DNA from: a virus | Strand: one strand, 5' to 3' | IMG/VR virus record: IMGVR_UViG_3300031521_000033 | Coordinates: 1-64,000 of that record | Length of the DNA stretch: 64,000 nt | Shown here: positions 2,028 to 38,897 of the stretch, in pieces | Position numbering within the stretch: position 1 is the stretch's first letter | Layout of the letters: each line of letters starts with the position of its first letter | The notes under the pieces: generated by a model | Told to the model about the DNA's origin: nothing | Databases searched by the model: none | What the model saw: the letters and a program-made list of their open reading frames with translations, nothing else | Translations under genes and position numbers: made by a program

Positions 2028-3503
2028 TTAAGCTGATGTTGACAGCACCGTTGGCTTAGTTTCTATTGGATCTTGTGCCGTACTGTCGGCCATAAGATTT
2101 GCTATCGTTGCATTAATTACATTATCGTCTTGATCCTTTAATGTATCCCTAATTACTTTTTTCTTCAACTCAATATTGTATGAAGGGCATATGTTTAATG
2201 CCAATCCCTGTGTTGCAACGTTTAATGAATCAATCGAATCCACAATACCAAATTGACTGTTATATGTTACTGTTACATTTGTTGCATCTAAATTTTCGCT
2301 CACGTATAAACCAAATATATTTGCAACTATCTGTTCAACACTCTCAAGATTCTGTGCAAACTCTGCAATCGTTTGGAATAAATTTGCATTGTCCCATTCT
2401 TTTGCTATTCCACTTTCCTGTGTTTGAACGCCTGTAACCAACTGCAAACTTGCCATTCTGTATATTTCTTGTACCATCCAAGTTATCTCGTCTGACAACA
2501 TCTTTGACGGGGCCGCATCTGGTGATATAAATTCTGGTTTCTGTGTTCCAGCTTTATATGCTAACAGATCTGTTGTACCAACGGCGATACTTTTTGCAGA
2601 TGCAAAATCATCCTCTTCACTAACCGGATAGGTAAGTAAACTAAACGCCTGATTTCTATTACGTTCTCTAAGTTCGCTGCATGCGTTGTATATGGCGTAA
2701 TTTGTACGGGCTATTGCATATATGTCTGATTGTGGTATAAGCCCTTCTGAGTCGTTTAAAGCACCATATATTGGAATTACTGGTATAATACCAATCTCGT
2801 TTGTTCCTTTCGTACTATCCCCATCTGCATCAACCTGATATGTATCATTTGTCCAAGTCCATGTTTCTGTGTATAATACCTTTTCTCCATCAACTATTTT
2901 AGTACTTCTAATGAAGTATTTTATGTAAATTAATTTTCCAAATTTATCAATAGCCCAATCAGTAACATGATCCGGTCTAACTAAATACAAGTATGGATAT
3001 AATCTGTTATCTTTTGCCGTTTTCAACGATACAGGTTCGGACGTATCTAATTTATCCATATCAACTACAATAAATTGAACCCCATGTAACTTTGCTCTTA
3101 TGGCGGCCCTCTTCATAAACCTATTCATTGATGTTCCTTTTCCGTCAACATTCGATAAAAAATCACCATAAAACTTTGAACCTGTAAATTCCCTTCGTGG
3201 TGAAGTTTTAAATATAGGATTAACATGTGCATCAACAACTGGTTTAACATAATTACAGTAATATGATAAACCTCTACGTCTATTGTATTTGTCTGCTGGT
3301 TCTCTTGGATGGGCTATTAAATATGCACCATCTTCAAAACCGCCGCTGGCTCTATAGCAATCATCTAACAATTTATATTTATTTGGCATTCCATGAAATG
3401 GTACTGATGCTAATAATCGTAATAGTAATGTTTCCTCTTCACTGCACACGCCACTATCCGGTTCATTTGAATCATAAATCTTTTGGTCATGTTTATTTGA
3501 CAA
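2028..3503 (-). CDS. Portal protein
   Basis: 491 aa between TerL and minor head; YYCNYVKPVVD, IPVIPIY and ESGIAKEWD portal-type motifs. Confidence 0.85.
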   Translation of the reverse strand: MSNKHDQKIYDSNEPDSGVCSEEETLLLRLLASVPFHGMPNKYKLLDDCYRASGGFEDGAYLIAHPREPADKYNRRRGLSYYCNYVKPVVDAHVNPIFKTSPRREFTGSKFYGDFLSNVDGKGTSMNRFMKRAAIRAKLHGVQFIVVDMDKLDTSEPVSLKTAKDNRLYPYLYLVRPDHVTDWAIDKFGKLIYIKYFIRSTKIVDGEKVLYTETWTWTNDTYQVDADGDSTKGTNEIGIIPVIPIYGALNDSEGLIPQSDIYAIARTNYAIYNACSELRERNRNQAFSLLTYPVSEEDDFASAKSIAVGTTDLLAYKAGTQKPEFISPDAAPSKMLSDEITWMVQEIYRMASLQLVTGVQTQESGIAKEWDNANLFQTIAEFAQNLESVEQIVANIFGLYVSENLDATNVTVTYNSQFGIVDSIDSLNVATQGLALNICPSYNIELKKKVIRDTLKDQDDNVINATIANLMADSTAQDPIETKPTVLSTSA

Positions 3504-3515
3504 TATATTACCTCC

Positions 3516-4838
3516 TTATATTCCAACCCTCATTGCCGCGTTTCTGATGTTATCTTTATCCCTATTTGTATATACTCCGTACCGAAACCCATCACAAGTA
3601 TGATCGTCAACTTCTTTTGGCGCATCAATTCCCTTTAATTGTGCTTTTTCATCCCATGAGTATGTTGATATTTGCTTGATGGTATTCTTGCACTCGTCAA
3701 CAACATAAAATCTGTCAGATCCAATCATTGTTGCAACTGTACGAATACCATCCAATACTGAATTTTGTGCATTTCTAACTTTCATTCTGAATCTTCTTAA
3801 CTGCAATCTAAAACTAGCTGCCGCCGGATCAATTAGTATCTCAATCTGTTTATAGTTTAATCCTGTTATTTTTGTATGTAGTGTTATAAACTCTTTCATA
3901 TCTTCTGAATAGTCTAAATCTGTTTTCTGAGATTCTTCTGTATGGCCATCATAATAATATTCTTTAACAGTGAAGAATTTTCCATCATATGTTTTGCACT
4001 GTAGCAGAAACACTGTTGCATTACCTGTACCATAATCGCATGCAACCCACCATTTTCTAACTTTATTAAATGGTACATCTTCTAATTTTATTACATGCCG
4101 TTCACTGACAAACATATCATATATAAGACCATCTGCAAGACACCACTGCCCTAAAATGAACCTCTTATAAAATACACCGCTGTAATTACGTTTATATCTG
4201 TCCTTAATTTTTGTTGATAATGAAGGGTTATCGTCCATATCAAAATGAAGATATATACCATTTTTTTCACTTAGTTTTTGTATAAGCTCTGTATAAACCC
4301 AATGGTATGGGCTTCCTGGATTACAGTTAATGAATATTTTACTATCTTCAACTGAGCATCTTCCTGTTGCTTGATTGTAAAATGATTCTGGCATTAAAAC
4401 TACTTCATCAAATAATACAGAACAGAATGTTGAACCCTGTACTAAATCCTGACTTGCCTCATCCTTGCCGCCGAAGATCCAAAACTTATTAACTACACTT
4501 CCCTTGAATATTTCTATGTAACTTAATGATATATTTTCCTGTATCTCATATCCAAGACTTATTAACATTTGCTTTAATGGTGAAAGGACATTACGTTTAA
4601 ACGCCCCAATTGTCTTACCACACATTCCAGCATCCATCTGGTTAAAATGACTCATTACATACAATATAAAAGATAATGTTAATATAATTGTCTTTCCACT
4701 ACGAATTGCGCCGTCTGCAATTATTATATCTTTATCTTTTACAGGGCTATTATCAGCCCAAAATGTTAATACTTTTAATTGCTTTTTTGAAAATGGTTTA
4801 AATTCAAATCCCTTTGTCTCATACTTCCTTAATGCCAT
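3516..4838 (-). CDS. terL: Terminase large subunit (PBSX-family)
   Basis: Walker A GAIRSGKT, Walker B LFDEV, NCNP coupling motif, nuclease CDYG and DDHTCDGFRY. Confidence 0.95.
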   Translation of the reverse strand: MALRKYETKGFEFKPFSKKQLKVLTFWADNSPVKDKDIIIADGAIRSGKTIILTLSFILYVMSHFNQMDAGMCGKTIGAFKRNVLSPLKQMLISLGYEIQENISLSYIEIFKGSVVNKFWIFGGKDEASQDLVQGSTFCSVLFDEVVLMPESFYNQATGRCSVEDSKIFINCNPGSPYHWVYTELIQKLSEKNGIYLHFDMDDNPSLSTKIKDRYKRNYSGVFYKRFILGQWCLADGLIYDMFVSERHVIKLEDVPFNKVRKWWVACDYGTGNATVFLLQCKTYDGKFFTVKEYYYDGHTEESQKTDLDYSEDMKEFITLHTKITGLNYKQIEILIDPAAASFRLQLRRFRMKVRNAQNSVLDGIRTVATMIGSDRFYVVDECKNTIKQISTYSWDEKAQLKGIDAPKEVDDHTCDGFRYGVYTNRDKDNIRNAAMRVGI

Positions 4839-5535
4839 CTAAATCATCATCCTTATCGTCCTTCCAAACTTCTAATGATTTAGAATTAATTGCTTCAAGA
4901 ATATTGCTACCAGCTTTTTCATCTTTAGCTTTTTCAGCTTGCCAACTAAAGAACTCTTTCAAACGGTCCCATGCCCATTTTTGATCTAATAGTTCAATTG
5001 ATACACCATCTCGGCCTTCTTTAATCTTGCTAATAAGGCTTGTATCCAAATATGCACTATCTTGTAATTCAACCTTATTAATCTTGCGAGTCATAACTTC
5101 TCCAGTGTCAGGATCTTTTACAACTCCACATAAATTAACAATTGGTATTACTTCTGATTTGAATTTAACAAAATCACCAATATTTGCATTTGCAACTTTC
5201 TGTAGAAAATTAACATACTGTGTTACATCTATTTCCATTGCATGTAGCATTATTTTCTTTACAGCTTTTAATTCTTTTTGTACCGATGGTTTTGCCATCA
5301 ATTTACAGCCTTCATATGTTGCCCTTGCTCTAGTTACTGTAGGATCGTTATCTCGATATGCCTTAAGATAAGCTGATGTTGCATTTCCGCTTTCAACTAC
5401 GTATAATACAAACTCTTTTTCCTTATCACTAATATTACTATCACATACATGTTCTATCATCTTATTTGTAATAGCTTTAGATTTTGATGGTTTAATATTT
5501 GCTTCAATGATATCATCTTTTTTCTTTCTCGCCAC
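4819..5535 (-). CDS. terS: Terminase small subunit (likely GTG start at 5535)
   Basis: HTH-type GNATSAYLKAY motif, C-terminal DGVSIELLDQKWA; RBS AAAGGAGG before GTG; upstream of terL. Confidence 0.85.
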   Translation of the reverse strand: MARKKKDDIIEANIKPSKSKAITNKMIEHVCDSNISDKEKEFVLYVVESGNATSAYLKAYRDNDPTVTRARATYEGCKLMAKPSVQKELKAVKKIMLHAMEIDVTQYVNFLQKVANANIGDFVKFKSEVIPIVNLCGVVKDPDTGEVMTRKINKVELQDSAYLDTSLISKIKEGRDGVSIELLDQKWAWDRLKEFFSWQAEKAKDEKAGSNILEAINSKSLEVWKDDKDDDLDGIKEV

Positions 5536-5564
5536 ATAATTACCTCCTTTATACACCTACATTA

Positions 5565-5593
5565 ATTATAACACATTTTTACTAATTTGTCAA
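5565..5593 (-). promoter_or_regulatory. Sigma-A type promoter for terS-terL-portal
   Basis: TTGACA-17 bp-TATAAT with extended TG. Confidence 0.8.
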
Positions 5594-5608
5594 TACCTTT
5601 GCACAAAA

Positions 5609-5660
5609 TAATAGCCATAATTAAGTTAACGAATAATCGCAACCTGATCATGGCTATTAT
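5609..5660 (-). terminator. Long stem-loop ending the tRNA transcript (terminator or processing hairpin)
   Basis: ATAATAGCCAT...ATGGCTATTAT perfect arms extended by G-U pairs on the minus strand, followed by TTT. Confidence 0.5.
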
Positions 5661-5694
5661 AAAAGGAGATAATAAAAATGAATAAGTCTGTTTT

Positions 5695-5753
5695 TGGGAA
5701 TTAATGGATTTGAACCATTTATATACGTGAATACAGCCACCAAGACTTTTCCC
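5695..5753 (-). pseudogene. Degenerate tRNA-like element
   Basis: Perfect T-arm AATGG-TTCAAAT-CCATT and GGGAA/TTCCC acceptor-like ends, but shortened D and anticodon arms and no CCA. Confidence 0.5.
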
Positions 5754-5756
5754 ATA

Positions 5757-5830
5757 TGGAGCACCACCACAGGATCTAACTGTGATTATGGCTTTACAAA
5801 AGCCACGTACTAACATTATACTAGTGGTGC
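5757..5830 (-). tRNA. tRNA-Thr(UGU)
   Basis: GCACCAC/GTGGTGC acceptor, TGGCT-TTTGTAA-AGCCA anticodon arm, CACAG/CTGTG T-stem, encoded CCA. Confidence 0.85.
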
Positions 5831-5838
5831 AGTAATAT

Positions 5839-5915
5839 TGGTGGGACCTGATGGGAACGATCCATCGACCTGTCCGTTATGAGCGGAATGCTCTAACCAA
5901 CTGAGCTAAGGTCCC
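5839..5915 (-). tRNA. tRNA with CAU anticodon (most like Ile2/lysidine type; Met not excluded)
   Basis: GGGACCT/AGGTCCC acceptor, GCTC-AGTTGGTTA-GAGC D arm, CTCATAA loop, A73 and CCA; resembles Bacillota tRNA-Ile2. Confidence 0.9.
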
Positions 5916-5921
5916 ATTAAT

Positions 5922-6008
5922 ATAGGTAATATTAACCCCAACCATCGTTAATATACTTGATGACCAATCAGTCTCATACATAATGTCATCCCCGTTGTTT
6001 CATCCTAT
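5922..6008 (-). ncRNA. Structured 5' leader of the tRNA transcript (three-way junction)
   Basis: ATAGG/CCTAT closing stem enclosing GATGAC/GTCATC and TATTAAC/GTTAATA hairpins, starting at the predicted +1. Confidence 0.45.
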
Positions 6009-6014
6009 ATTTAT

Positions 6015-6043
6015 ATTATAACACATTTTTACTTACTTGTCAA
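6015..6043 (-). promoter_or_regulatory. Sigma-A type promoter of the tRNA operon
   Basis: TTGACA-17-TATAAT, nearly identical to the terS promoter. Confidence 0.8.
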
Positions 6044-6049
6044 TACTTT

Positions 6050-7243
6050 TTATAAAACTAATTTTGTTCTTGTTGTTCCAACTGTGAAATAGAAACCATC
6101 ACTTGCTTTTTCAATTGTTCCATCTAACGCTCCTGCTGCAACTGCTGCCGCCGGAAGTAATGTTGATGTTCTAATTCTTACAGGTGACATTGTAAGCGGT
6201 GATGCTCCTAGTCCGCCGTTTAAAGTAGCCGCACCGCCAACACCTGTTGATAGATACATTAATGCTACAAAAGCTATTCCACCTGTCCCTGCGACCGCTG
6301 GTGATGCTAATGTTGTAATAGGTACACTTGATAGTACAGACATACCACTTGATGTTGTAGTGAGTACTGGAGTATTTGTAGTTGTCATTGATACAAGTCC
6401 TGATACATATGCCGCTGTTCCTGCTACAACTACCTGACCAACTACTGAATCTGATGTATGTGTAAATGCTATTGCTCCACCAATTGCTAATGCAATATTA
6501 TCTGGTGCATCAACTTTAAATGATGCTCTATTAGCAATAAAACTACCTGTTGCTCCTGTAGTTGAATAAAAACAACGTGCCGATGCATTTGAATGTAGAA
6601 CACTTACATTACCATCTAATAATTGTATTTTACTTGCAGAATTTGTATTGGTCCATACAATTGCATCTCCCACGCCTGATGGGGAAACACTATTAACAAA
6701 ACTATTTATTAGTTGTAAATTAGCTGCTGCAGATCCACTAAATGATAATGTTGTTCCTGATCCTGCGGTTGCTGCATTTTGCAATACAATATTTTCACCA
6801 ATAACTGTACCTGAAAATGAAGATACATGATTACCAATAATATAAACACCATATTTAACAGGTGATGTTATATTTACTCCTGCCTTTAGTGTTATATTCT
6901 CTGTGTACATACCAGGATATACACCTATTGTATAACCACTTGAAGCAACGTCTATGGCCCTCTGTACTGTTAAATAAGGTGAACCTAAACTACCATCACC
7001 TGCCGTATCATTACCATTTTTAGAAACATATAGATAATTACTTGGTTTGATCAAACTATCAACAGCTCCTTTAAGCCACCAACCATTTCCTGTGGCCGGG
7101 TTTATATTTTTATTACTCCACACATATTCTGTTTTAGTATCTAATTCAGTAAAATTGGCCAATTCATATATCTTACCTGTAGGCTTATCATCTGAAAAAA
7201 GACCACTATAATTAAGTTTATTTATGTCATAATAAACTGCCAT
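6050..7243 (-). CDS. G/S/T/A-rich beta-helix (pectin-lyase fold, DUF1565-like) protein; possible virion fibre or decoration protein
   Basis: LYVSKNGNDTAGDGSLGSPYLTVQRAID...VYPGMYTENITL is the typical N-cap of parallel beta-helix proteins; likely start MAVYYD with RBS AAAGGA. Confidence 0.6.
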   Translation of the reverse strand: MAVYYDINKLNYSGLFSDDKPTGKIYELANFTELDTKTEYVWSNKNINPATGNGWWLKGAVDSLIKPSNYLYVSKNGNDTAGDGSLGSPYLTVQRAIDVASSGYTIGVYPGMYTENITLKAGVNITSPVKYGVYIIGNHVSSFSGTVIGENIVLQNAATAGSGTTLSFSGSAAANLQLINSFVNSVSPSGVGDAIVWTNTNSASKIQLLDGNVSVLHSNASARCFYSTTGATGSFIANRASFKVDAPDNIALAIGGAIAFTHTSDSVVGQVVVAGTAAYVSGLVSMTTTNTPVLTTTSSGMSVLSSVPITTLASPAVAGTGGIAFVALMYLSTGVGGAATLNGGLGASPLTMSPVRIRTSTLLPAAAVAAGALDGTIEKASDGFYFTVGTTRTKLVL

Positions 7244-7274
7244 TAACACACATCCTTTTAATTTTATATAAAAC

Positions 7275-7301
7275 AAAAAGGACTAGTTTAAAAACCAGTC
7301 C
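7275..7301 (-). terminator. Rho-independent terminator closing the large ncRNA
   Basis: GGACTGGTTT-TT-AAACTAGTCC followed by TTTTT on the minus strand. Confidence 0.8.
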
Positions 7302-7310
7302 AAAATATAA

Positions 7311-7912
7311 TGATGCTTTTTCCAATCTCCACAACCATCCCCCAATATTACCATAGTAATCAAGTTTGAAAAGCATCTGAAAAATGGTTGCTTCCGTTTG
7401 CAAACGTTATTTTATTTAACATAAACCTAAATGGTTAAACCAACTGCTAATACAGCCTCACAAATGTTATAAAATGGACAATAGTTAACAGTATTTTTCT
7501 AATATGCTCAATTACATAACATTTTCTCTTCTCACATATTAAGGTGTTTCATGTTAATACGATTTTGGTAGGATTCGTAACCTCTAATACTAGTACTTGC
7601 TCACAAGTGAATGATATTCTAAATTAAAGCCCCGTCATTCCCGGAGGCTGATATTATTATTTGTTGTGGTGATCATCCACATTCATTCAATTCCTATTTT
7701 TACAGGTTGGAGTTCCTGACTTTGTTTATTCGCTTATGGCTGTTAGTTTTCAGTATTTTATTGGGTTCAACTAGTGAACTTCCCCTCATTTAACTGTACA
7801 TACAAGTATTACAGCACCACTCACTTATTTGCCTCGCTCTTTCGGGTGCGATATCCCAACTTCTTGGAAATGGGTTTAACGTCTCCATTCCGACCATGTA
7901 TGCATACAAGTT
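7311..7912 (-). ncRNA. Large structured ncRNA, ROOL-like (ROOL/GOLLD class) candidate
   Basis: ~600 nt with no ORF between a consensus promoter and a terminator; locally more G/C-rich; many stems (TGCATACA/TGTATGTA, TCGC..GAAA..GCGA, 3' GATGCTTTT/AAAAGCATC); size and tRNA-adjacent phage context fit ROOL. Family not verified by covariance model. Confidence 0.65.
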
Positions 7913-7999
7913 ATAGGATAATCATTCTCAAAATATTTTAGCATTAAAACTTATCCCATAAAGTGGGAATCTTTTTTGTTTCTTTTATCCTATATTATT

Positions 8000-8028
8000 A
8001 TTATAACATACTTTTACCTTTTTGTCAA
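8000..8028 (-). promoter_or_regulatory. Sigma-A type promoter for the large ncRNA
   Basis: TTGACA-17-TATAAT with extended TG; predicted +1 near 7993. Confidence 0.8.
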
Positions 8029-8137
8029 TAGATTTATATAATATATTTAATATAATATTTGCAAAGGTTATATCAACTTGGTTGCAAGCTGTTTAAGTAC
8101 TATTTTTTATATACTTTAGGGAATGTGAGTACTTGAT

Positions 8138-8235
8138 ATATAGAAAAATCCCTAGCATTTAGTAAAAATTAGTCCAATTTATAAATTAATAAAAATTGAA
8201 ATAGTTTAACTAAATGTTAGAGGATTTTTCTATAT
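8138..8235. repeat. Long imperfect inverted repeat (~98 bp)
   Basis: ATATAGAAAAATCC-CTAGCATTTAGT ... ACTAAATGTTAG-AGGATTTTTCTATAT. Confidence 0.85.
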
Positions 8236-8591
8236 TGATAAATTTCTTTAGTGAAAAGCTCGCACCTATCAATAGTTCTGTTTTTACAGAGCCAGACTAT
8301 TACTTAAGAACACTCAATGCCCGTGTTCATAATAGCCATCCCACATATGCATAATAATACACATACGTCACTGACCACCCTTGCCGAATTATATTGCCGC
8401 AATCGCAATCATACTGTAAGTATTATAAATAATTAACAGGTCCGTTACATTAGGATCACTGTTTACATCTATAATATATATCTTATAGCAAAGCACATTT
8501 ACAGATTAAGGCTGTGCGGACCATGACCAATTTCTTGTATATCAGAAATTTAAGATCTTATTATATAACGGTTAATATTAAATTTTATCTT
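8138..8591 (-). ncRNA. Second putative structured ncRNA, family unknown
   Basis: No ORF; own promoter at 8598-8626; serial stems GGTCCG/CGGACC, ACGTATGTGTA/TATGCATATGT, GGCTATTA..GAACAC/GTGTTC..TAATAGTC, TATTGATA/TATCAATA, ending in the long IR. Confidence 0.5.
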
Positions 8592-8597
8592 ATCTAC

Positions 8598-8626
8598 AGT
8601 ATACCACACTTTAACATATTTGTCAA
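8598..8626 (-). promoter_or_regulatory. Sigma-A type promoter (leftward)
   Basis: TTGACA-17-TATACT with extended TG. Confidence 0.75.
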
Positions 8627-8710
8627 GTGTTTTTTATTATTTATTTTAAATTATTTTTAACTACCTTATTTATATTATAACACAACTAAAGTTAAAAGTA
8701 AATATTTTTA

Positions 8711-8739
8711 TTTACATATTACATAAAGTATGCTATAAT
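8711..8739 (+). promoter_or_regulatory. Rightward promoter at the divergence point
   Basis: TTTACA-17-TATAAT with extended TG. Confidence 0.6.
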
Positions 8740-8878
8740 TAGTTTTAATAGTTTTTATTTTGTTTCCTATATAAGTATAAGGACTATGCAATAAAAACAG
8801 CACACAGGCAATACTACATAGCTTAAACTGTATTGCAACACTAAAATATATGTATTATATAGAAAGGAAGTCCATAAC

Positions 8879-9034
8879 ATGTTAAAAAGTAATATTCATA
8901 AGAAGATAACCAGTGAGGATAAATTTGCAAGAAAGTATTATTGTGATCATGCAAGACTAAATTCAATTAGGTTTGACAAGAAGTATAACAAACGTAAATT
9001 AAGAAGATACTTAAAAAATAAAATGAATGACTGA
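8879..9034 (+). CDS. Small basic hypothetical protein (51 aa)
   Basis: Not in the ORF track; RBS GAAAGGAAG; MLKSNIHKK...KMND. Confidence 0.55.
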   Translation: MLKSNIHKKITSEDKFARKYYCDHARLNSIRFDKKYNKRKLRRYLKNKMND

Positions 9035-9041
9035 AAAGTAC

Positions 9042-9070
9042 TTTACAAAAAGGTATAGTTGTGTTATACT
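9042..9070 (+). promoter_or_regulatory. Rightward promoter for the plus-strand accessory operon
   Basis: TTTACA-17-TATACT with extended TG. Confidence 0.6.
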
Positions 9071-9104
9071 ATAAATATAGTATAAATTAAAGGTGGTTTT
9101 TATA

Positions 9105-9272
9105 GTGGATAAAATTTATGGTAAGAAAACTAAACAAATGAACATTAAATTACCTATAGAACAAATGCACAAATTCCAAACAAAATGTGATGATGAGGGT
9201 ACTAATGTGTCAGCAAAGGTTAGATATTTTATTCTAAGATACTTGGAAGGTAGATTAATATGCAAGAATTAA
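9105..9272 (+). CDS. Ribbon-helix-helix (Arc/CopG-like) DNA-binding protein, 55 aa
   Basis: GTG start with RBS AGGTGG; KQMNIKLPIEQMHKFQTKCDDEGTNVSAKVRYFILRYL fits the RHH strand-helix-G-x-S-helix pattern. Confidence 0.65.
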   Translation: MDKIYGKKTKQMNIKLPIEQMHKFQTKCDDEGTNVSAKVRYFILRYLEGRLICKN

Positions 9273-9418
9273 AGACAGATGATATTGAGTATATGATTGA
9301 ATTTGCATATCAAACAATGTATATTCCTGACTCAGCGGCTAGATGCTATGATGCTGCAATGAATCAATTAGAAAAAATTAAAGAATATATCAAGGTGAAT
9401 AAAAATAATGAACAATAA
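9260..9418 (+). CDS. Hypothetical protein (52 aa)
   Basis: Overlapping-gene chain, RBS GGAAGG. Confidence 0.5.
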   Translation: MQELKTDDIEYMIEFAYQTMYIPDSAARCYDAAMNQLEKIKEYIKVNKNNEQ

Positions 9419-9587
9419 TGAGTTAGATCTAAACCATGAAATAAACGAAAATGTAAATGCAACAGCATCAATAACCGAAGATAAGGTTGCTATTGGTGTT
9501 GATTACAAAATATCAGATGCAACAATATTATCAGTATCAAAAAATAACAAAGGTGAATCAGCCGCAAAATTAACAATTAATATATAG
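9408..9587 (+). CDS. Hypothetical beta-strand-rich protein (59 aa)
   Basis: RBS AAGGTG; alternating hydrophobic strands. Confidence 0.5.
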   Translation: MNNNELDLNHEINENVNATASITEDKVAIGVDYKISDATILSVSKNNKGESAAKLTINI

Positions 9588-9601
9588 GAGGAAACTAACT
9601 T

Positions 9602-9952
9602 ATGACAGGATTAGAAATTTCAATGCAATTACAGGAATTAGATGTAGATATTAATTCTATTTATGAAACAATGAATACATCAATTTCAAAAACAGCAAAA
9701 GATGAGTTAAAAAAGGTATTAGCAGTATTAGGTGATAGGTATAGTGAATTATCTACAACCTCGTATCGACCAGTTAGTGGTGTTATTAATTGTAAGGGAG
9801 AACATATGGATTACTTATCTCTTAATGGGATTATGTGTAAGTTTACAAAAGATGACACAGCAGAAAATCTAATTAAAGAATTTAAAAATTATAATTGGAA
9901 ACGCGAAGTACAGGGTAAATTTGCAGAAGATGATGGGAGCCATGGAAATTGA
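9602..9952 (+). CDS. Hypothetical protein
   Basis: RBS AGGAGG; operon context. Confidence 0.7.
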   Translation: MTGLEISMQLQELDVDINSIYETMNTSISKTAKDELKKVLAVLGDRYSELSTTSYRPVSGVINCKGEHMDYLSLNGIMCKFTKDDTAENLIKEFKNYNWKREVQGKFAEDDGSHGN

Positions 9953-10149
9953 ACAATATTATGATAACATTAAAATTATCGGAAGAGCAGATTATTGCAC
10001 TTGGTGATAATGCAGAAAAAGAAGAATTTAAAAATGATAAAGAGTCTATGATTGGTTTATATAATTTGTTATTATATAAGAAAGTAAAAGAAATATTAGT
10101 ACCAGCGGATGCATTTATTGCAATTAGAAAGTGGGTTGGATTAGATTGA
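9949..10149 (+). CDS. Hypothetical protein
   Basis: TTGA overlap with the upstream gene. Confidence 0.6.
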   Translation: MNNIMITLKLSEEQIIALGDNAEKEEFKNDKESMIGLYNLLLYKKVKEILVPADAFIAIRKWVGLD

Positions 10150-10310
10150 AAAAAGCAAGTGAAGAAAAATTCTTCGAATGGTTTTATTTTAACTGTGACT
10201 TTGGACCTAGTGATTCAGATTACCGGGATAGAAAAGTTAAAGAGTTTGAAGAAGCAACAGGATTAAAAGCACCAGATGGTTTTGGAGAGGAATGGGAAAA
10301 TGCAGAGTAA
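10146..10310 (+). CDS. Small acidic phage protein (54 aa)
   Basis: TTGA overlap; WFYFNCDFGPSDSD...TGLKAPDGF. Confidence 0.55.
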   Translation: MKKASEEKFFEWFYFNCDFGPSDSDYRDRKVKEFEEATGLKAPDGFGEEWENAE

Positions 10311-10803
10311 ATATAAAGTTGGGGATAAGGTTAGGATTAAAAGTTGGGAAGAACTTTTAAAAATTGGTAAAGAGTGTTATGCAGATCAGTCTATATACTT
10401 TGAAGAGATGCATGGTTATTTAGATAGGGATGATAGTTCTTTATGCGGTAATGTATTCAAAATCAGAAGTATAAGTACTCTTGGTAAGTTCTTTGTTGAT
10501 GCCCCAACTCATGCTATATTTTGTGATAATATGGTAACACCAGTTACAGAAGAAGATAAAAAACCTGACCTATACTTAAAATATGTAAAAGATGACGTGG
10601 TTGAACATCCAAGTCATTATACAACAGGTAATATTGAGGTTTGGGACTATATTAATGATCAAAACTTAGATTATTTTCTTGGAAACGCTGTAAAATACAT
10701 CAGCCGGGATGGAAAAAAGGATAAATCAAAGGAAATTGAAGATTTAGAGAAAGCGGTTGCATATTTAAATAAAAAAATAAGTATTTTAAAGGAGAATGTA
10801 TAA
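10300..10803 (+). CDS. DUF3310 (T7 gp1.7/SaV-like) domain protein with an N-terminal KOW/SH3-like domain
   Basis: VEHPSHYTTGNIEVWDYI, GNAVKYISR, EDLEKAVAYL; N-terminal KYKVGDKVRIK. Confidence 0.8.
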   Translation: MQSKYKVGDKVRIKSWEELLKIGKECYADQSIYFEEMHGYLDRDDSSLCGNVFKIRSISTLGKFFVDAPTHAIFCDNMVTPVTEEDKKPDLYLKYVKDDVVEHPSHYTTGNIEVWDYINDQNLDYFLGNAVKYISRDGKKDKSKEIEDLEKAVAYLNKKISILKENV

Positions 10804-10805
10804 TT

Positions 10806-10952
10806 ATGCCACTGTCAAAAGGTAAAAGTAATAAAAGTATTTCAAAAAATATAAAAACAGAAATGGCAAGCGGTAAATCACAGGCACAATCAGTGGCAAT
10901 TGCATTATCTGTTGCTAAAAAGGGTAAAAAATCAAAGAAAAAAGGTAAATAA
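10806..10952 (+). CDS. Small basic conserved phage protein (MPLxKGKS...QxVAIAL family), 48 aa
   Basis: MPLSKGKSNKSISKNIKTEMASGKSQAQSVAIALSVAKK; RBS AAGGAG; missed by the ORF track. Confidence 0.7.
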   Translation: MPLSKGKSNKSISKNIKTEMASGKSQAQSVAIALSVAKKGKKSKKKGK

Positions 10953-10953
10953 T

Positions 10954-13161
10954 ATGTCAGATGAAGAAGTTTTTATACAAAACGCTAAAAATTACCATGA
11001 AAAGCATCCAGAGGTTGATATGGTTACTGCAAAGTATCAAGGTGCTTATAATAATTGGTGTTCTAAGATGTTTGATAAATATTCTGACTCTAATTATACA
11101 GTTGTATTCAGAACAGATGGAAAGGAGATTAATTAATGTTCATGGAAAACACAAAATTATATGTAACAGTTGAATCAAGGTATAAAATTGGTCAGCGGGT
11201 TTCAGATACATTTTTAGGTCATCAAAATGGTATTGTAATTGATATGAAGTTAGATGAAATAGATGATGTGTATTACTTTGTATATAAAATAGAATTAGAA
11301 TCAAGTGGTGAAACTGTAGAAATAAATGAGAGCAATTTAAAGGTTATTGACATTATATAATAAACGTGATATTATAGTGACAAAGGGGATAGTAAATATG
11401 AATAAATTTATTTGTAGTAAGTGTGGAACAGATATTAACTTAGAAAATGATAAATATGGGTATAGTCTGGATAGATGCCATGAGATTAGATTGGGAAGAG
11501 TTGGCTATGGTTCCATATTTGATGGATGTGATCTTAATTTTAATTTATGTGACGATTGTTTATATAAATTCATTCAATCATTTACAGAAAAAGGTAAAAA
11601 TAAAGTAATGCAATCAGGTTGTTGGCAAGAGTATAAACCGGACAATACAGTTGCGGAACAGTTGCGTGATTTTATAGGCAAGATCAAAGGAAATAAATAT
11701 TATATATTTGGAAGGAATAAAAAATGAAAATTATAAAATTAGTAAAAAATGGTCATGATAATTATTATGCAATGTTTGACAAAGAATTTCCAGTATTAAC
11801 ATATGAAAAGATTGGTTCAGATTATGTTGGATCAGTCAAAGATGACAATGGAAATGTTATATTAAGTAATGTATTAAAGTGGGAAAGTTGGCCCGGTGCA
11901 TTTGGTGGAAGAGAAATAACACTAAAAATGAAAGATGGTACTGATCAAGTAATTAAAGATTATTGGTATGATTGTGGGTATGATTCAAATGAAGGTGAAT
12001 TTATTTCGATTGGGGCCGGAACGTTAGAAGAACTACAAAAATGTTTTGTATATTATAGTCTAAACATTAAATTGTCCACATTTGAAGAAATGGTTAATGA
12101 ATATTTATCACGGGACAAATTATATGACTATAAAGAAGTAGAAGAATGGGCAAAGATTCAGTATAAATGGTATCCTCTTGTGGTTCACGGTAAAGTTCGT
12201 CCGTTTATGATGAATAAATTTGGTATGGTTGTAACAGCGGAAACCAAAGAACGTGTTTATACAGAACGATTTAATAGACGAAGAAAAGATGGTAAATTAT
12301 ATAATTATTTTAAAATGTCATATAATGATGGGACCAGATTAGTAAAATTAGAGGATACATATATTAATGTATGCCTAGAAACGCTCACAACGTACTGTAG
12401 AGACGAAATAATTACAAACTGTAAGCTAGATCCAGAAACAAATAAAGCACCACTTACAAAGGAACAACAGGATGAAATTAAACCAATTAAGAGTGATATT
12501 AAATTATTGAAGGATCTATTGAAACGGCACGATGCAGAAGATTTAATATCATTAACATTTTTGGAAGATCAATTACAAAAAAGAGTAGAGGAGTTTTTAA
12601 AATGATAACATTATATAATAAAGTAAATAATACAACTGTTGGCATATTTAATTCAATGGATGAAGCTAATGAGATTAATGATAATACAGGAAGGTTTACA
12701 CCAATTGATACTAACGTTACAAATTATATTATAGAAGCACAGGGTGTAGTTAGGGTAACACCTAGTAGAGAATTAGCAATAAGATATTTTGATCTTGGCA
12801 TGGCTACAATTAAAAAACTACAACTAGAAGAACAATTTATTGTGGGGGCTTGGTAATGGGACTTATATGGTGGATGTTATATAAATTAAGGCATTTTTAT
12901 TTAAGTGATGAAGATAGTTGTAGACTAACGATAGGCGTAGTATATGCAAAAAAGGGAACAAACCCATTTGAAAAAGATTATGAAGAACAAGTGGCCCTTG
13001 GAGTAAAAAATGGATTTGTACGGTATAAGTTCAGACATCCACAGGATCGATACAAAGAATGGATTGGTTGTTCATGTACATGCAGTTCTTACATTCTTAC
13101 AATATTTACCGATGATATGGAAATAATTGATATTGATTATTATGGAGTGATGGGTAGATGA
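10954..13161 (+). CDS. Chain of hypothetical proteins (10954-11136, 11136-11360, 11398-11727, 11724-12605, 12602-12856, 12850-13161)
   Basis: Tightly coupled ORFs with RBSs; no recognisable function. Confidence 0.65.
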
Positions 13162-13913
13162 GTGATGCAGATACAACAGAATCGCTTAGAGTAGCGTTAC
13201 GCAGTCGATATCAAATGCCTGAGTGGATATTAATGGAGGAAGTTGGAAATGCAACTGGTTGCCGCTGTAGTCGTTATGCAGATGCATTAGCATACAATCT
13301 TTATCCATCTAAGAACTACCAAAAGATTGGCTTTGAAATTAAAGCCTCAAAAGGTGATCTTAGGAGAGAATTAAAGGATGGTTCAAAGTCTGATGCAATT
13401 GCCAAATACTGTGATGAATGGTATTTGGTAGTTCCAAAAGGTTTATGCGATAACGAAGAAATTCCTTTAACATGGGGAATTATGGAATTAAATAATGACA
13501 AACTCAGAATAAAAAAGAAACCAGAAAAACTTGTTAATAAAATTCCATTTGATAATGACATTATTTCAGGAATTTTACAGTCCGTCATTAGACTTGCAAG
13601 AAATCGTTATGATTGGAATGCTAGTATTATACAAAGAAAACTCGAGAAGGAAAATGAAAAACATATTGCAGATAGAATTGCACAAAGATTATCAGAAGTT
13701 GAAACTGATCTTGCTGCATTAAAGGATATAAAACAAAAATTAGGACTAAGTTCATATAGACCAATTGATTCAGATGAATTTGTTAAAAACTATAAACTTG
13801 CACAGAAAATATCAGATCAGTATGTTGAGTATAGAGCACAATCACTTGAAACAGTTGCAAAGAGATTAATTGAGGATGCAACAGAATTACGTAAAATAGA
13901 AAAAGGAGAATAA
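13158..13913 (+). CDS. MmcB-like PD-(D/E)xK nuclease-fold protein
   Basis: EEV...RYADAL...GFEIKASKGDLRREL...K...YCDEWYLVVP. Confidence 0.7.
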   Translation: MSDADTTESLRVALRSRYQMPEWILMEEVGNATGCRCSRYADALAYNLYPSKNYQKIGFEIKASKGDLRRELKDGSKSDAIAKYCDEWYLVVPKGLCDNEEIPLTWGIMELNNDKLRIKKKPEKLVNKIPFDNDIISGILQSVIRLARNRYDWNASIIQRKLEKENEKHIADRIAQRLSEVETDLAALKDIKQKLGLSSYRPIDSDEFVKNYKLAQKISDQYVEYRAQSLETVAKRLIEDATELRKIEKGE

Positions 13914-13915
13914 TA

Positions 13916-14588
13916 ATGAAAATTGTTAAAGTATGCGGTACATGCGATTGGCATGATGAGTTTACATGTGTATGCTGTAATGGTAGAAGTAAATTTAGGG
14001 CTGATGTTACAGAATTAATTGGAACATGCAGATTTTGGACGGATAAAAACAAAAACGTATTAGGTGAAATATTTGCAAGCAGTTGTGGTAATGATGGTAA
14101 GCCAACTTTAGACAAGATTGGTTCAGATAATGTTAATACAAGAATACTAGAACAGTCTGTATTAAGAAATATTGTTCCTAAAGAATTTGTAAGTCAGGTA
14201 CATTTGAAAGGAAGTCTATAATATGAAAACAGGTATCGACGCATTTGGAGAAGAAGTATTAATTGGGGATCAGGTAGTTTATAATACAGGATATTCCGCT
14301 TATTCTAAAATAAATGGAGTAAACTACAAGGCATTAAATAAGGGAATTGTAACAAAGATTACTCCAAAGGGAGTTACAATAGGTAAATTAATTAATAGAC
14401 CATCAAATAAAATTTATAAAACTAATTCACATAGGATTGAATTTTTAACTAAAATAATTATAAATATGCAAGACGCACTTATAGAGTTAGCATATCTTGG
14501 AGGAAATATAGGAAGCTATGGAAATAGTGAGGGTAATAAAATTGCAATTAATGCATTGGAAAGATTTTATAAGGAAATTGAAACATAA
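13916..14588 (+). CDS. Two hypothetical proteins (13916-14221 Cys-rich; 14223-14588)
   Basis: RBSs, operon context. Confidence 0.6.
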
Positions 14589-37406: not shown

Positions 37407-38093
37407 TTACACGAATCAAACCACAATATACTGAACAAGCACCTTTATAATCACCTGCATAAACTACTGTCATAAGAGGTTCATAATGATCTACTTTTAC
37501 TCTAAATAATTTGTCATCTATTCCATCCTGTCCTATGGATACTCTTAAAATATCATCCGTAAATATGCTCACAGGGTAGACACCTGAATCATCCGATCCA
37601 AAATCAATTAATCTATTCATTGAAATTACCTACCATTTCTTCAATATTGCAACCAAGTACTTCTTCATCACAACACGGGCAGATATAAAAACAATCAATA
37701 CCATTTTCCTCAATTGGGTAGTATTCTTCCACAAACCATCTACTTGTAGTATCGTTCCATTCTTCTCTTGTGCTTATAACACCACATTCTGGACATTTAT
37801 ACATTGTAACTTCCATTTTATTTTTCCTCCTCTTTCTTATTATATGAAAGTTGGTATGAACCGCCTGTAAAATAAAGTAATGCATTTCCTTTGTCATCTG
37901 TACATACAAAATTAGTCCCATACTCATCTGAGGTATCCCGTATTTCTGCTATAACTCCACCTATGTCACCATGTCCCATAATAACATTTTCGCCAACTTC
38001 CCAACTCACAGAACCACCTTCATCTCCATTTAACACTAATATACTAGCAATTTCACCATACTGTATGTTTTTCATTTTTATATCTCCTTTATA

Positions 38094-38897
38094 TTATACT
38101 TTGTACCCATTTTTAACTATATCATAAAAATCATTATCTGTAAAGACTTTCATTCCCCATTTTTCTTTTACCCCACTTAATTCAACAAAATGTGTTCCCG
38201 GGATTAGTGGTCTGTAGCCGCTTGACTTGCCATAATCAGGGTAGATTTGATAACTTCCTGCAAATATATCATATACAGTTTTTACAATTGGTTTTTTATT
38301 CGTTCTGTTGTGATCAATTATAATTTTTGGAATTACTTTGTTTAAATGGAAATGTTCTCTAAATACTAAATCTGCATGAAGATATTCAAAATAGTTTTCT
38401 TGTTTGCTGCCTTTGTGAATAACCCCACCAACATAGCAGTTTTTATTTACATTGATATAAAATAAGCACATACTTCCCATATACAATTTGGGATTACCAA
38501 GAAGTGTTGCAATAATCATTTCGGTATTGATGAATGTTTCATCTTGTACCCGTTTTGGATGGTTACCTGAGCATATGCCAATTAATCTTCCGGCTTCATA
38601 CAGAGGTTTCATATCCTCAACAATTGCATATAACTGCTTATCGCCAGATAACTTTTCCTCTAATACATTACCTTTGGAATTTCGCGTAATTGTGTTTGTT
38701 GAGTCCCCGCCTAGGATAACATATACATTTGGTACTGTTAATATAAATTCAACGGTTTTCTGCAAACTGGTACGATCATTTAATCCCGTATGTACATCAC
38801 TAAGCACGACTAGATATGCTTTATCAGCCTCAACTCTATGCCGGATAATATGACCCATTAATTCCTTTTCAAGTAATTTCTCTTTTTCAATAAGCAT
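38094..38897 (-). CDS. Calcineurin-like metallophosphoesterase
   Basis: SDVH, GGD, GNH, H and EHFH motifs. Confidence 0.85.
   Translation of the reverse strand: MLIEKEKLLEKELMGHIIRHRVEADKAYLVVLSDVHTGLNDRTSLQKTVEFILTVPNVYVILGGDSTNTITRNSKGNVLEEKLSGDKQLYAIVEDMKPLYEAGRLIGICSGNHPKRVQDETFINTEMIIATLLGNPKLYMGSMCLFYINVNKNCYVGGVIHKGSKQENYFEYLHADLVFREHFHLNKVIPKIIIDHNRTNKKPIVKTVYDIFAGSYQIYPDYGKSSGYRPLIPGTHFVELSGVKEKWGMKVFTDNDFYDIVKNGYKV

Follow-up and report, generated by a model that had tools for sequence, protein, structure and literature searches.

The DNA analysed here, referred to as the window, is a stretch of 64,000 nucleotides (nt) that makes up the first 64 kb of the 94,209-bp IMG/VR virus record IMGVR_UViG_3300031521_000033. 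Between the leftward packaging genes of this phage and a rightward operon lies a region that consists of a row of four strong sigma-70-like (host-type) transcription units, all on the minus strand. From right to left, these comprise a transcript free of open reading frames (ORFs), named RNA1, a second and larger ORF-free transcript, named RNA2 (7337 to 7993), two tRNAs, and the packaging genes themselves, with one protein gene lying between RNA2 and the tRNA unit. RNA2, an abundant non-coding species of ~650 nt that gave the deepest contigs in four of four RNA runs, contains no ORF and belongs to no Rfam family, and is the main subject of this report. An earlier note, made from the letters of the window alone, had described three consecutive leftward units with near-consensus promoters, the first two ORF-free and the third making tRNAs, and had suggested an RNA-based module related to the large phage RNAs ROOL and GOLLD, with a possible dedicated protein partner.

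The three promoters were recovered by a promoter scan. On the minus strand, the last base of the -10 element falls exactly at 8598, 8000 and 6015, and the three promoters agree with TTGACA-17-TGnTATAAT at 11-12 of 12 positions. The RNA2 promoter (8000 to 8028) is a 12/12 match, a perfect TTGACA-17-TATAAT with the TG extension. The promoter of the tRNA unit (6015 to 6043) is also a 12/12 match and is followed by a leader of ~93 nt (6008-5916), and that of RNA1 (8598 to 8626) reads TTGACA-17-TGGTATACT and scores 11/12. A fourth, perfect local copy (5565 to 5593, minus strand) precedes the packaging operon of terS (5556-4819), terL, the portal gene and a head-morphogenesis gene, and a fifth, weaker tandem copy is located upstream of RNA1 (8674 to 8702, minus strand). 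By chance, the extended-consensus pattern would be expected 0.22 times in the window, but 15 occurrences were counted; five of these are perfect, and the 2.5-kb island contains three of them. All five local copies belong to one repeat family, 56 nt long, in which the similarity reaches beyond the hexamers. These cassettes (5545-5600, 5995-6050, 7980-8035, 8578-8633 and 8654-8709, with an inverted copy at 9042-9091) are 64-80% identical, and the likeness continues through the spacer into the first transcribed bases. The predicted RNA2 and tRNA transcripts both start with AUAUAGGAU, and a complement is found 70-90 nt downstream, as UUAUCCUAUA in RNA2 and as CCUAUAU just before the tRNA; the start and its complement could form a shared processing stem.

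No other stretch of the 94-kb genome that lacks ORFs of 60 or more amino acids is as long as 7277-9601, in agreement with the description of the first two units as ORF-free. Reading these units under genetic code 4, or with TAG or TAA as glutamine, opened no long frame, and no ribosome-binding site was visible on the ORFs of 20-58 amino acids within them. As had been claimed, this Bacillota-type phage does have ORF-free units, each running separately from promoter to terminator, next to its tRNA genes.

Part of the segment 7270-8600 was contained in six metatranscriptome runs from six peat or permafrost studies, and the assembled contigs of four of these runs (X19 to X22) were placed on positions 3000-12000 (9 kb), a placement in which stretches without RNA contigs do not count as evidence of silence. 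The deepest contig of the 9-kb stretch lay on RNA2 in all four runs: 7647-8011 at depth 66 in X19, where the other listed phage contigs of the run were at depth 2-10, 7335-7882 at depth 14.5 in X20, 7337-7974 at depth 18.2 in X21, and 7341-7977 at depth 14 in X22. The tRNA unit was covered by RNA contigs at depth 7-10. The RNA2 contig alone was assembled from the phage's 9 kb in X22, and almost alone in X21. Because X22 yielded only RNA2, DNA carry-over is an improbable source of these contigs, since uniform carry-over would give the opposite. In RNA sampled from natural peat and permafrost, RNA2 accumulates far above the phage messages next to it, and the larger of the two RNAs is not only transcribed, as had been predicted, but locally dominant in the RNA libraries of four studies. 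With concordant ends in four of four runs and no ORF, RNA2 is a discrete, abundant, non-coding species, and is best read as an abundant, unclassified phage non-coding RNA.

Runs X21 and X22 represent a variant strain with 18-19 differences, and the boundaries of RNA2 are the same in the two strains, the contig ends clustering at 7974-7977 and 7335-7342 across runs. RNA2 spans from 7993 (predicted start) or 7977 (observed) to ~7340. The tail of its unit (7270 to 7373, minus strand) is made up of a hairpin (7373-7318) followed by an intrinsic terminator (7301-7280; 9 bp, 4 GC) and a T-run, and RNA2 stops 40-65 nt short of the end of this terminator. The contig break at 7335-7342, present in four of four runs and in both strains, lies inside the loop of hairpin 7373-7318, and may reflect either RNA processing at this point or an artefact of the libraries where a stable hairpin is met. 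Since RNA2 stops well before the terminator end, and in a hairpin loop, we infer that its 3' end is produced by processing or trimming. Just inside the two ends of RNA2, AUUCCC (7971-7966) can pair with GGGGAU (7342-7337); this 6-bp helix was picked by RNAalifold and is no evidence by itself.

One contig of X19 (7048-7342, depth 3.4) runs from the contig break across the terminator into the protein gene, with a depth ~5% of that upstream. The start of the protein gene (7243-6050) is 27 nt past the T-run of terminator 7301-7280, and no promoter with at least 10 of 12 matches was found between the two, so the earlier remark that this gene lies directly behind the terminator of the large RNA without a visible promoter of its own was correct. 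Read-through of the RNA2 terminator is consequently the sole visible route for its expression. The promoterless gene and the contig that crosses the terminator would both be expected if RNA2, and perhaps RNA1, were long leaders of late operons under termination and antitermination control, with the abundant species a by-product and the leader gating the beta-helix protein gene and possibly the downstream units. Such cis-acting leaders, which would resemble the late leader unit of phage lambda or the processive-antitermination leaders of Bacillota, also agree with the strong, constitutive-looking promoters, each of which has a terminator behind it shortly before structural genes. We nevertheless judge this unlikely. 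A length of 650-720 nt far exceeds that of known attenuators or antitermination leaders, the abundant species stops before the terminator hairpin, conservation is highest in the distal 5' 400 nt and not near the terminator, and in other phages no such leader accompanies the homologous protein genes. In phage lambda, transcription from the strong PR' promoter yields a non-coding transcript, 6S RNA, and meets the intrinsic terminator tR' ahead of the late genes. The likeness to RNA2 lies in the promoter, the non-coding RNA, the terminator and a downstream gene that needs read-through. However, lambda 6S RNA is ~194 nt long, whereas RNA2 is ~650 nt with a conserved distal domain. Unlike in lambda, the tRNA and terS units downstream have perfect promoters of their own and so need no read-through; no Q-like antiterminator was identified, nor was one sought.

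The differences between the two strains are unevenly distributed along RNA2. Twelve of the 16 that are listed fall within 7441-7567, in a variable 3' domain (7337 to 7567, minus strand; 12 differences in 231 nt). Four fall within 7568-7974, or at most seven if unlisted ones are added, in a conserved 5' domain (7568 to 7993, minus strand; 4-7 differences in 407 nt) that has a GC content of 36% and 59% purines on the RNA strand. The divergence of the 5' 400 nt from the variant strain is 1-2%, compared with 5-11% in the other parts sampled, namely RNA1 (13/216, plus 11 inserted letters), a piece of the portal gene (22/202) and the 3' domain of RNA2 (12/231). The 5' domain was less diverged than each of these parts, with Fisher p values from 0.03 to 5e-8 across assumptions. 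Such a pattern suggests much stronger constraint on the 5' 400 nt of RNA2 than on the other parts sampled, whether by selection or by exchange, two alternatives that a conservation estimate resting on two sequences cannot separate.

In order to place RNA2 among known RNAs, cmscan was run against the 4227 families of Rfam 15, at gathering thresholds on the window, at E<=10 on 3.6 kb, and at E<=10 with lax filters on 711 nt. No match to RNA1 or RNA2 was obtained in these searches; only tRNAs were above threshold, and the hits at E<=10 were to unrelated families at chance level. RNA2 is therefore not a detectable member of a described family, and both large RNAs are left without one. The ROOL model (RF03087, gathering threshold 99.1 bits) had no match in the region or in the whole 94-kb genome at E<=10, the whole-genome search being weak alone because control genomes were likewise without a match, and GOLLD had no match in the all-family searches of the region, either at gathering thresholds or at E<=10. 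Profiles of ROOL, GOLLD and OLE are present in Rfam (10.1101/2024.12.08.627333). The kinship with ROOL or GOLLD that had been suggested was thus not recovered. That RNA2 is a divergent member of one of these families is highly improbable: its similar length and its position next to tRNAs in a Bacillota-type phage are as expected of one, but the 711-nt query gave no Rfam match at E<=10, the ROOL model found nothing genome-wide, and a conserved 5' domain with a variable 3' domain is the reverse of the GOLLD pattern, as judged from two sequences only. A phi29-type pRNA was also considered and rejected, as it had no Rfam match and the phage possesses terS and terL and is 94 kb long; phi29-like phages replicate by protein priming and have no terS.

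Homologues were sought at the level of DNA as well. Similarity searches of phage GenBank records returned tRNA matches only. No likeness to RNA1 or RNA2 was found in 28 viral loci that carry relatives of the protein (33 loci were examined in all), nor in four whole virus records. Of the exact 20-22-mers taken from the conserved core, two words were absent in IMG/VR and one was absent in 185,579 species genomes. BLAST against 399 genomes of the Clostridia-type class to which an Oscillospiraceae metagenome-assembled genome (MAG) belongs yielded no more than short matches at chance level (25-32 nt).

Phage RNAs that are large, abundant and encoded next to tRNAs form a recurring and functionally unexplained group, to which RNA2 adds a member without detectable kinship. 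ROOL and GOLLD are found near tRNA islands in phages; they are 550-800 nt long, occur in Bacillota phages and prophages, are abundant, and have no known protein partner (10.1101/2024.12.08.627333). RNA2 shares the context of ROOL, being located in a phage genome (terS, terL, portal) with tRNAs nearby. Whereas ROOL and GOLLD adopt ornate, multimer-forming folds, RNA2 has no covariance-model match and a folding energy at the level of chance. In GOLLD the 3' region is universally conserved and the 5' region less so (10.1101/2024.12.08.627333); RNA2 differs in that, between the two strains, its 5' 407 nt have 4-7 differences and its 3' 231 nt at least 12. In Staphylococcus phage K, two long, abundant RNAs adjoin tRNA genes, lnc001 (13595-14229, ~635 nt), which has its own promoter, and lnc002 (37679-38832, ~1150 nt), and the authors likened these long non-coding RNAs (lncRNAs) to ROOL and GOLLD by context alone (PMC9241854). 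When lnc001 and lnc002 were searched against Rfam, no family was above threshold. Phage K, a large virulent Bacillota phage, therefore likewise has two long ORF-free transcripts beside tRNAs and outside any Rfam family. Comparison of RNA1 and RNA2 with its sequence (KF766114, 13000-15000 and 37000-39500) by blastn with word size 7 and by nhmmer gave short chance matches only. The arrangement differs, as the phage K RNAs flank tRNAs in early and lysis regions, whereas here the RNAs are upstream of terS with a fibre-like gene between. RNA2 is also known from environmental contigs and not from a controlled infection, unlike the RNAs of phage K.

The whole is best explained, with a probability that we put at roughly 55%, if RNA2 is an abundant ~650-nt non-coding RNA that is trimmed, acts in trans, lies beside tRNAs and represents a new, lineage-restricted family. 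RNA2 would then be made from one promoter family along with two phage tRNAs and the structural genes, and would be a stable, end-trimmed RNA with its mature 3' end ~40-65 nt before the terminator and two ends that could pair. It would most likely act on the translation or RNA-handling machinery of the host during infection, the sort of function that has been hypothesised for ROOL, GOLLD and the phage K lncRNAs, and a leak of a few percent through its terminator may feed the downstream beta-helix fibre-like gene. RNA2 is directly visible in environmental RNA of several independent peat and permafrost studies. Since its core is sharply conserved and its ends are reproducible, its boundaries are defined well enough for synthesis and probing. 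The family so far consists of one phage lineage, and the finding would become far more significant if covariation or a defined fold could be demonstrated.

A number of observations count against this explanation. The expression data are contigs, not reads, and so carry no strand, true ends or quantitative levels, and the RNA runs had been selected for containing 7270-8600. In addition, the contig ends at 7974-7977 fall on a hairpin and T-run (7954-7978) that resemble a terminator of the plus strand. These facts leave room for an antisense counterpart of the predicted RNA2, with its start near 7320-7340 and its end at the hairpin 7954-7968 and the T-run behind it, which stops at ~7975-7978, exactly where two contigs end. 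We regard such a plus-strand RNA as quite improbable. No plus-strand promoter of at least 9/12 is present near 7300-7340, where a lone TATAAT (7306-7311) has no -35 element, and at the other end of the contigs a perfect minus-strand promoter is 17-20 nt away. Adapter letters of Read 1 directly adjoin ~7340 in X21, and two adapter remnants on X19 contigs that cover genes known to lie on the minus strand have the same orientation; if these are dUTP-type libraries, this hints that RNA2 is on the minus strand with its 3' end at ~7340. The base composition of RNA2 also agrees with that of other minus-strand genes.

The remaining counterpoints concern the sequence of RNA2 itself. Its folding energy is at chance level, with minimum free energy (MFE) z-scores against dinucleotide shuffles of -1.6 (726 nt), +0.25 (641 nt) and -1.4 (5' 408 nt), and at values of +0.25 to -1.6 the earlier note's term hairpin-rich does not hold for the larger RNA, nor is its description as large and structured supported. 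When the 16 strain differences were placed on the MFE fold, 7 were unpaired, 6 were one-sided and pair-keeping, and 3 were pair-breaking, which amounts to no structural signal from one variant strain. RNA2 had no homologue in any collection searched, and the low divergence of the 5' domain could stem from recent recombination between strains and not from purifying selection. Chance-level folding and the lack of homologues in the collections searched would follow if RNA2 were functionless spacer, that is, if duplicated promoter cassettes fired into decayed or filler DNA at the border of early and late genes, with abundance due to a perfect promoter and chance stability; the 56-nt promoter repeat family is what cassette duplication predicts. 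This seems to us rather unlikely, since divergence in the 5' domain is 3 to 10 times lower than in RNA1, in the 3' domain or in the portal-gene piece, the ends are discrete and reproducible in two strains, and a compact 94-kb phage has few other gaps.

The function given to RNA2 in the preferred explanation is pure analogy with ROOL, GOLLD and the phage K lncRNAs. A bolder form of it would make RNA2 the first of a new class of large RNAs in phages, a stable ~650-nt particle with a conserved 400-nt core that is very abundant, together with tRNAs, in virulent phages of anaerobic peat Bacillota. Such a particle, which might form multimers as ROOL and GOLLD do, would act in trans on host translation or tRNA-directed defence, with RNA1 as a second, independent RNA. 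We entertain this only tentatively, as a conceivable outcome that we would not expect. Among other kinds of element, no repeat common to RNA2 and the protein gene, of the kind expected for the template and variable repeats of a diversity-generating retroelement, was found in a local repeat search; no tandem repeats of the antitoxin type were found in the repeat search of the region; and a tRNA and transfer-messenger RNA (tmRNA) scan found no tmRNA. A likeness of 7446-7430 to the D-arm of a tRNA-Met (14/17) had no supporting stem and overlapped variable sites, and was treated as chance.

The protein gene beside RNA2 (6050 to 7243, minus strand, ATG at 7243) encodes a 397-amino-acid right-handed beta-helix protein that is fibre- or tailspike-like and related to DUF1565. 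Its score for DUF1565 (PF07602) is 18.1 bits, just below the cut-off of 20.3 bits, and a homologue that is 66% identical (P0006) scores above it at 29.9 bits. Homologues were found in 66 clusters, with 44-70% identity over the C-terminal 330 residues, together with one marginal match (35% over ~1/3 of the query). The N-terminal ~65 residues are variable, and some homologues have collagen repeats or a CBM5/12-like piece there. The AlphaFold2 model is an all-beta, right-handed parallel beta-helix with a predicted local distance difference test score (pLDDT) of >85 over residues 70-320. The best Foldseek matches were the tail fibres of Agrobacterium phage 7-7-1 (PDB 9rkv; E = 3e-6, 19-21% identity), followed by pectate lyases, pectin methylesterases and tailspikes. 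The protein shares with these tail fibres and with DUF1565 proteins a right-handed parallel beta-helix, a variable N-terminus (~65 amino acids) and a conserved C-terminal body. However, its identity to the tail fibres is only 19-21%, and its homologues are found in head, not tail, modules.

In all five of the unrelated phages that were typed (L001, L007, L009, L016 and L023), the homologue is inside the head module, between the terL, portal and head-morphogenesis genes and a protease or major capsid gene. Homologue-bearing phages range in GC content from 25% to 48%, with the protein still 44-70% identical, and full-length prophage copies are present in Tissierellia and Oscillospiraceae MAGs. 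Near the homologues in the 28 viral loci no tRNAs were found, save one each in two loci, ~5 kb upstream, and the few ORF-free gaps of these loci contained no equivalents of the RNA units. Two related contigs have 840 nt without an ORF of at least 70 amino acids ~4 kb upstream of the homologue (L016, 1197-2036; L019, 2057-2896), and these gaps showed no Rfam match and no likeness to RNA1 or RNA2. The dedicated protein partner proposed earlier is thus not supported, since the homologues sit in head modules without a similar RNA and almost never have tRNAs nearby; among the protein's relatives, the two RNAs and the protein were never found together. We infer that the protein, given its fibre-like fold, is a head-module protein and not an RNA partner, and it may be a mobile virion-type fibre or decoration module, as modelled, with nothing linking it to RNA. 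This removes the protein-partner lead and points instead to a widespread beta-helix fibre-like gene that rides in the head modules of many unrelated phages.

The other ORF-free transcript, RNA1 (8138 to 8592, minus strand; ~455 nt), is a further candidate non-coding RNA, though a weaker one than RNA2. Its last 98 nt form a nearly perfect, AT-rich hairpin (8235-8138), with an A-run flanking one side and a T-run the other. This hairpin looks like a bidirectional terminator, and could alternatively be part of an origin or pac region. Coverage of RNA1 is shallow, with one contig of depth 3 (8109-8371) and another of depth 5.4 (8320-8535). The MFE z-score of RNA1 is -5.3 with the terminal hairpin but only -2.0 once it is removed, so that the signal of structure comes mostly from this hairpin. 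All ten listed RNA1 substitutions in the variant strain are transitions. On a consensus fold of the two sequences, 7 were pair-keeping and none pair-breaking, with one compensatory pair, from U-A to C-G at 8467/8430 in the helix 8476-8466/8432-8422; random sets of transitions reached both the pair-keeping and the compensatory mark in 4% of trials. The 11 letters inserted in the variant cluster at the tip of one hairpin (8349-8360). As far as two sequences go, the pattern of kept pairs and insertions hints at structure in RNA1.

The third leftward unit encodes, as stated earlier, two tRNAs, which were detected by Rfam and by ARAGORN and have the CCA encoded. These are a tRNA with anticodon CAU (5839 to 5915, minus strand; Met by anticodon, could be Ile2) and tRNA-Thr(UGU) (5757 to 5830, minus strand), with covariance scores of 61 and 54.9 bits, respectively, against the 29-bit cut-off of RF00005. 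They are located ~1.4 kb downstream of RNA2, in the next unit but one, and the unit closes with a terminator-like hairpin (5608 to 5660, minus strand) with 20-nt arms followed by UUUUG. The codon ACA makes up 63% of the Thr codons of the phage, and AUA 43% of its Ile codons. Since UGU reads ACA, tRNA-Thr(UGU) is consistent with a role in ordinary codon supply. For the CAU tRNA, the candidates are an elongator tRNA-Met and a tRNA-Ile2, and some similar phage tRNAs among the GenBank matches carry an Ile annotation. The two tRNAs would then supply the dominant A-ending codons of the phage.

The genome has a GC content of ~31%, and a 124-bp repeat is common to both ends of the 94,209-bp record. 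Because no tyrosine or serine recombinase or integrase was found in a search of the phage genome, this 94-kb peat phage is probably virulent. A k-mer look-up showed the phage to be present in peat metagenomes of many studies, with at least 18 DNA runs containing 53-100% of the k-mers. No relatives of its terS were found in viral contigs, and the best identity of its terL elsewhere, in viral and metagenome contigs, is 38-44%; the loci of these terL matches contained no comparable RNA island. By this measure the phage is isolated in sequence space. As the packaging genes to the left of the RNA region, from terS to the head-morphogenesis gene, are transcribed leftward and an operon to the right, with its promoter at 8711-8739, is transcribed rightward, the RNA region marks the border of divergent gene blocks. 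The first gene of the rightward operon, downstream of this promoter, is a very basic ORF of 51 amino acids with a good ribosome-binding site (8879-9034, plus strand). The second-largest ORF-free stretch of the genome (17821-19035, 1215 nt) is situated where gene blocks converge. The most AT-rich part of the window, with a GC content of 15-22%, is 8525-8824, next to the 98-nt hairpin of RNA1, which is also close to where the GC skew and the direction of transcription switch.

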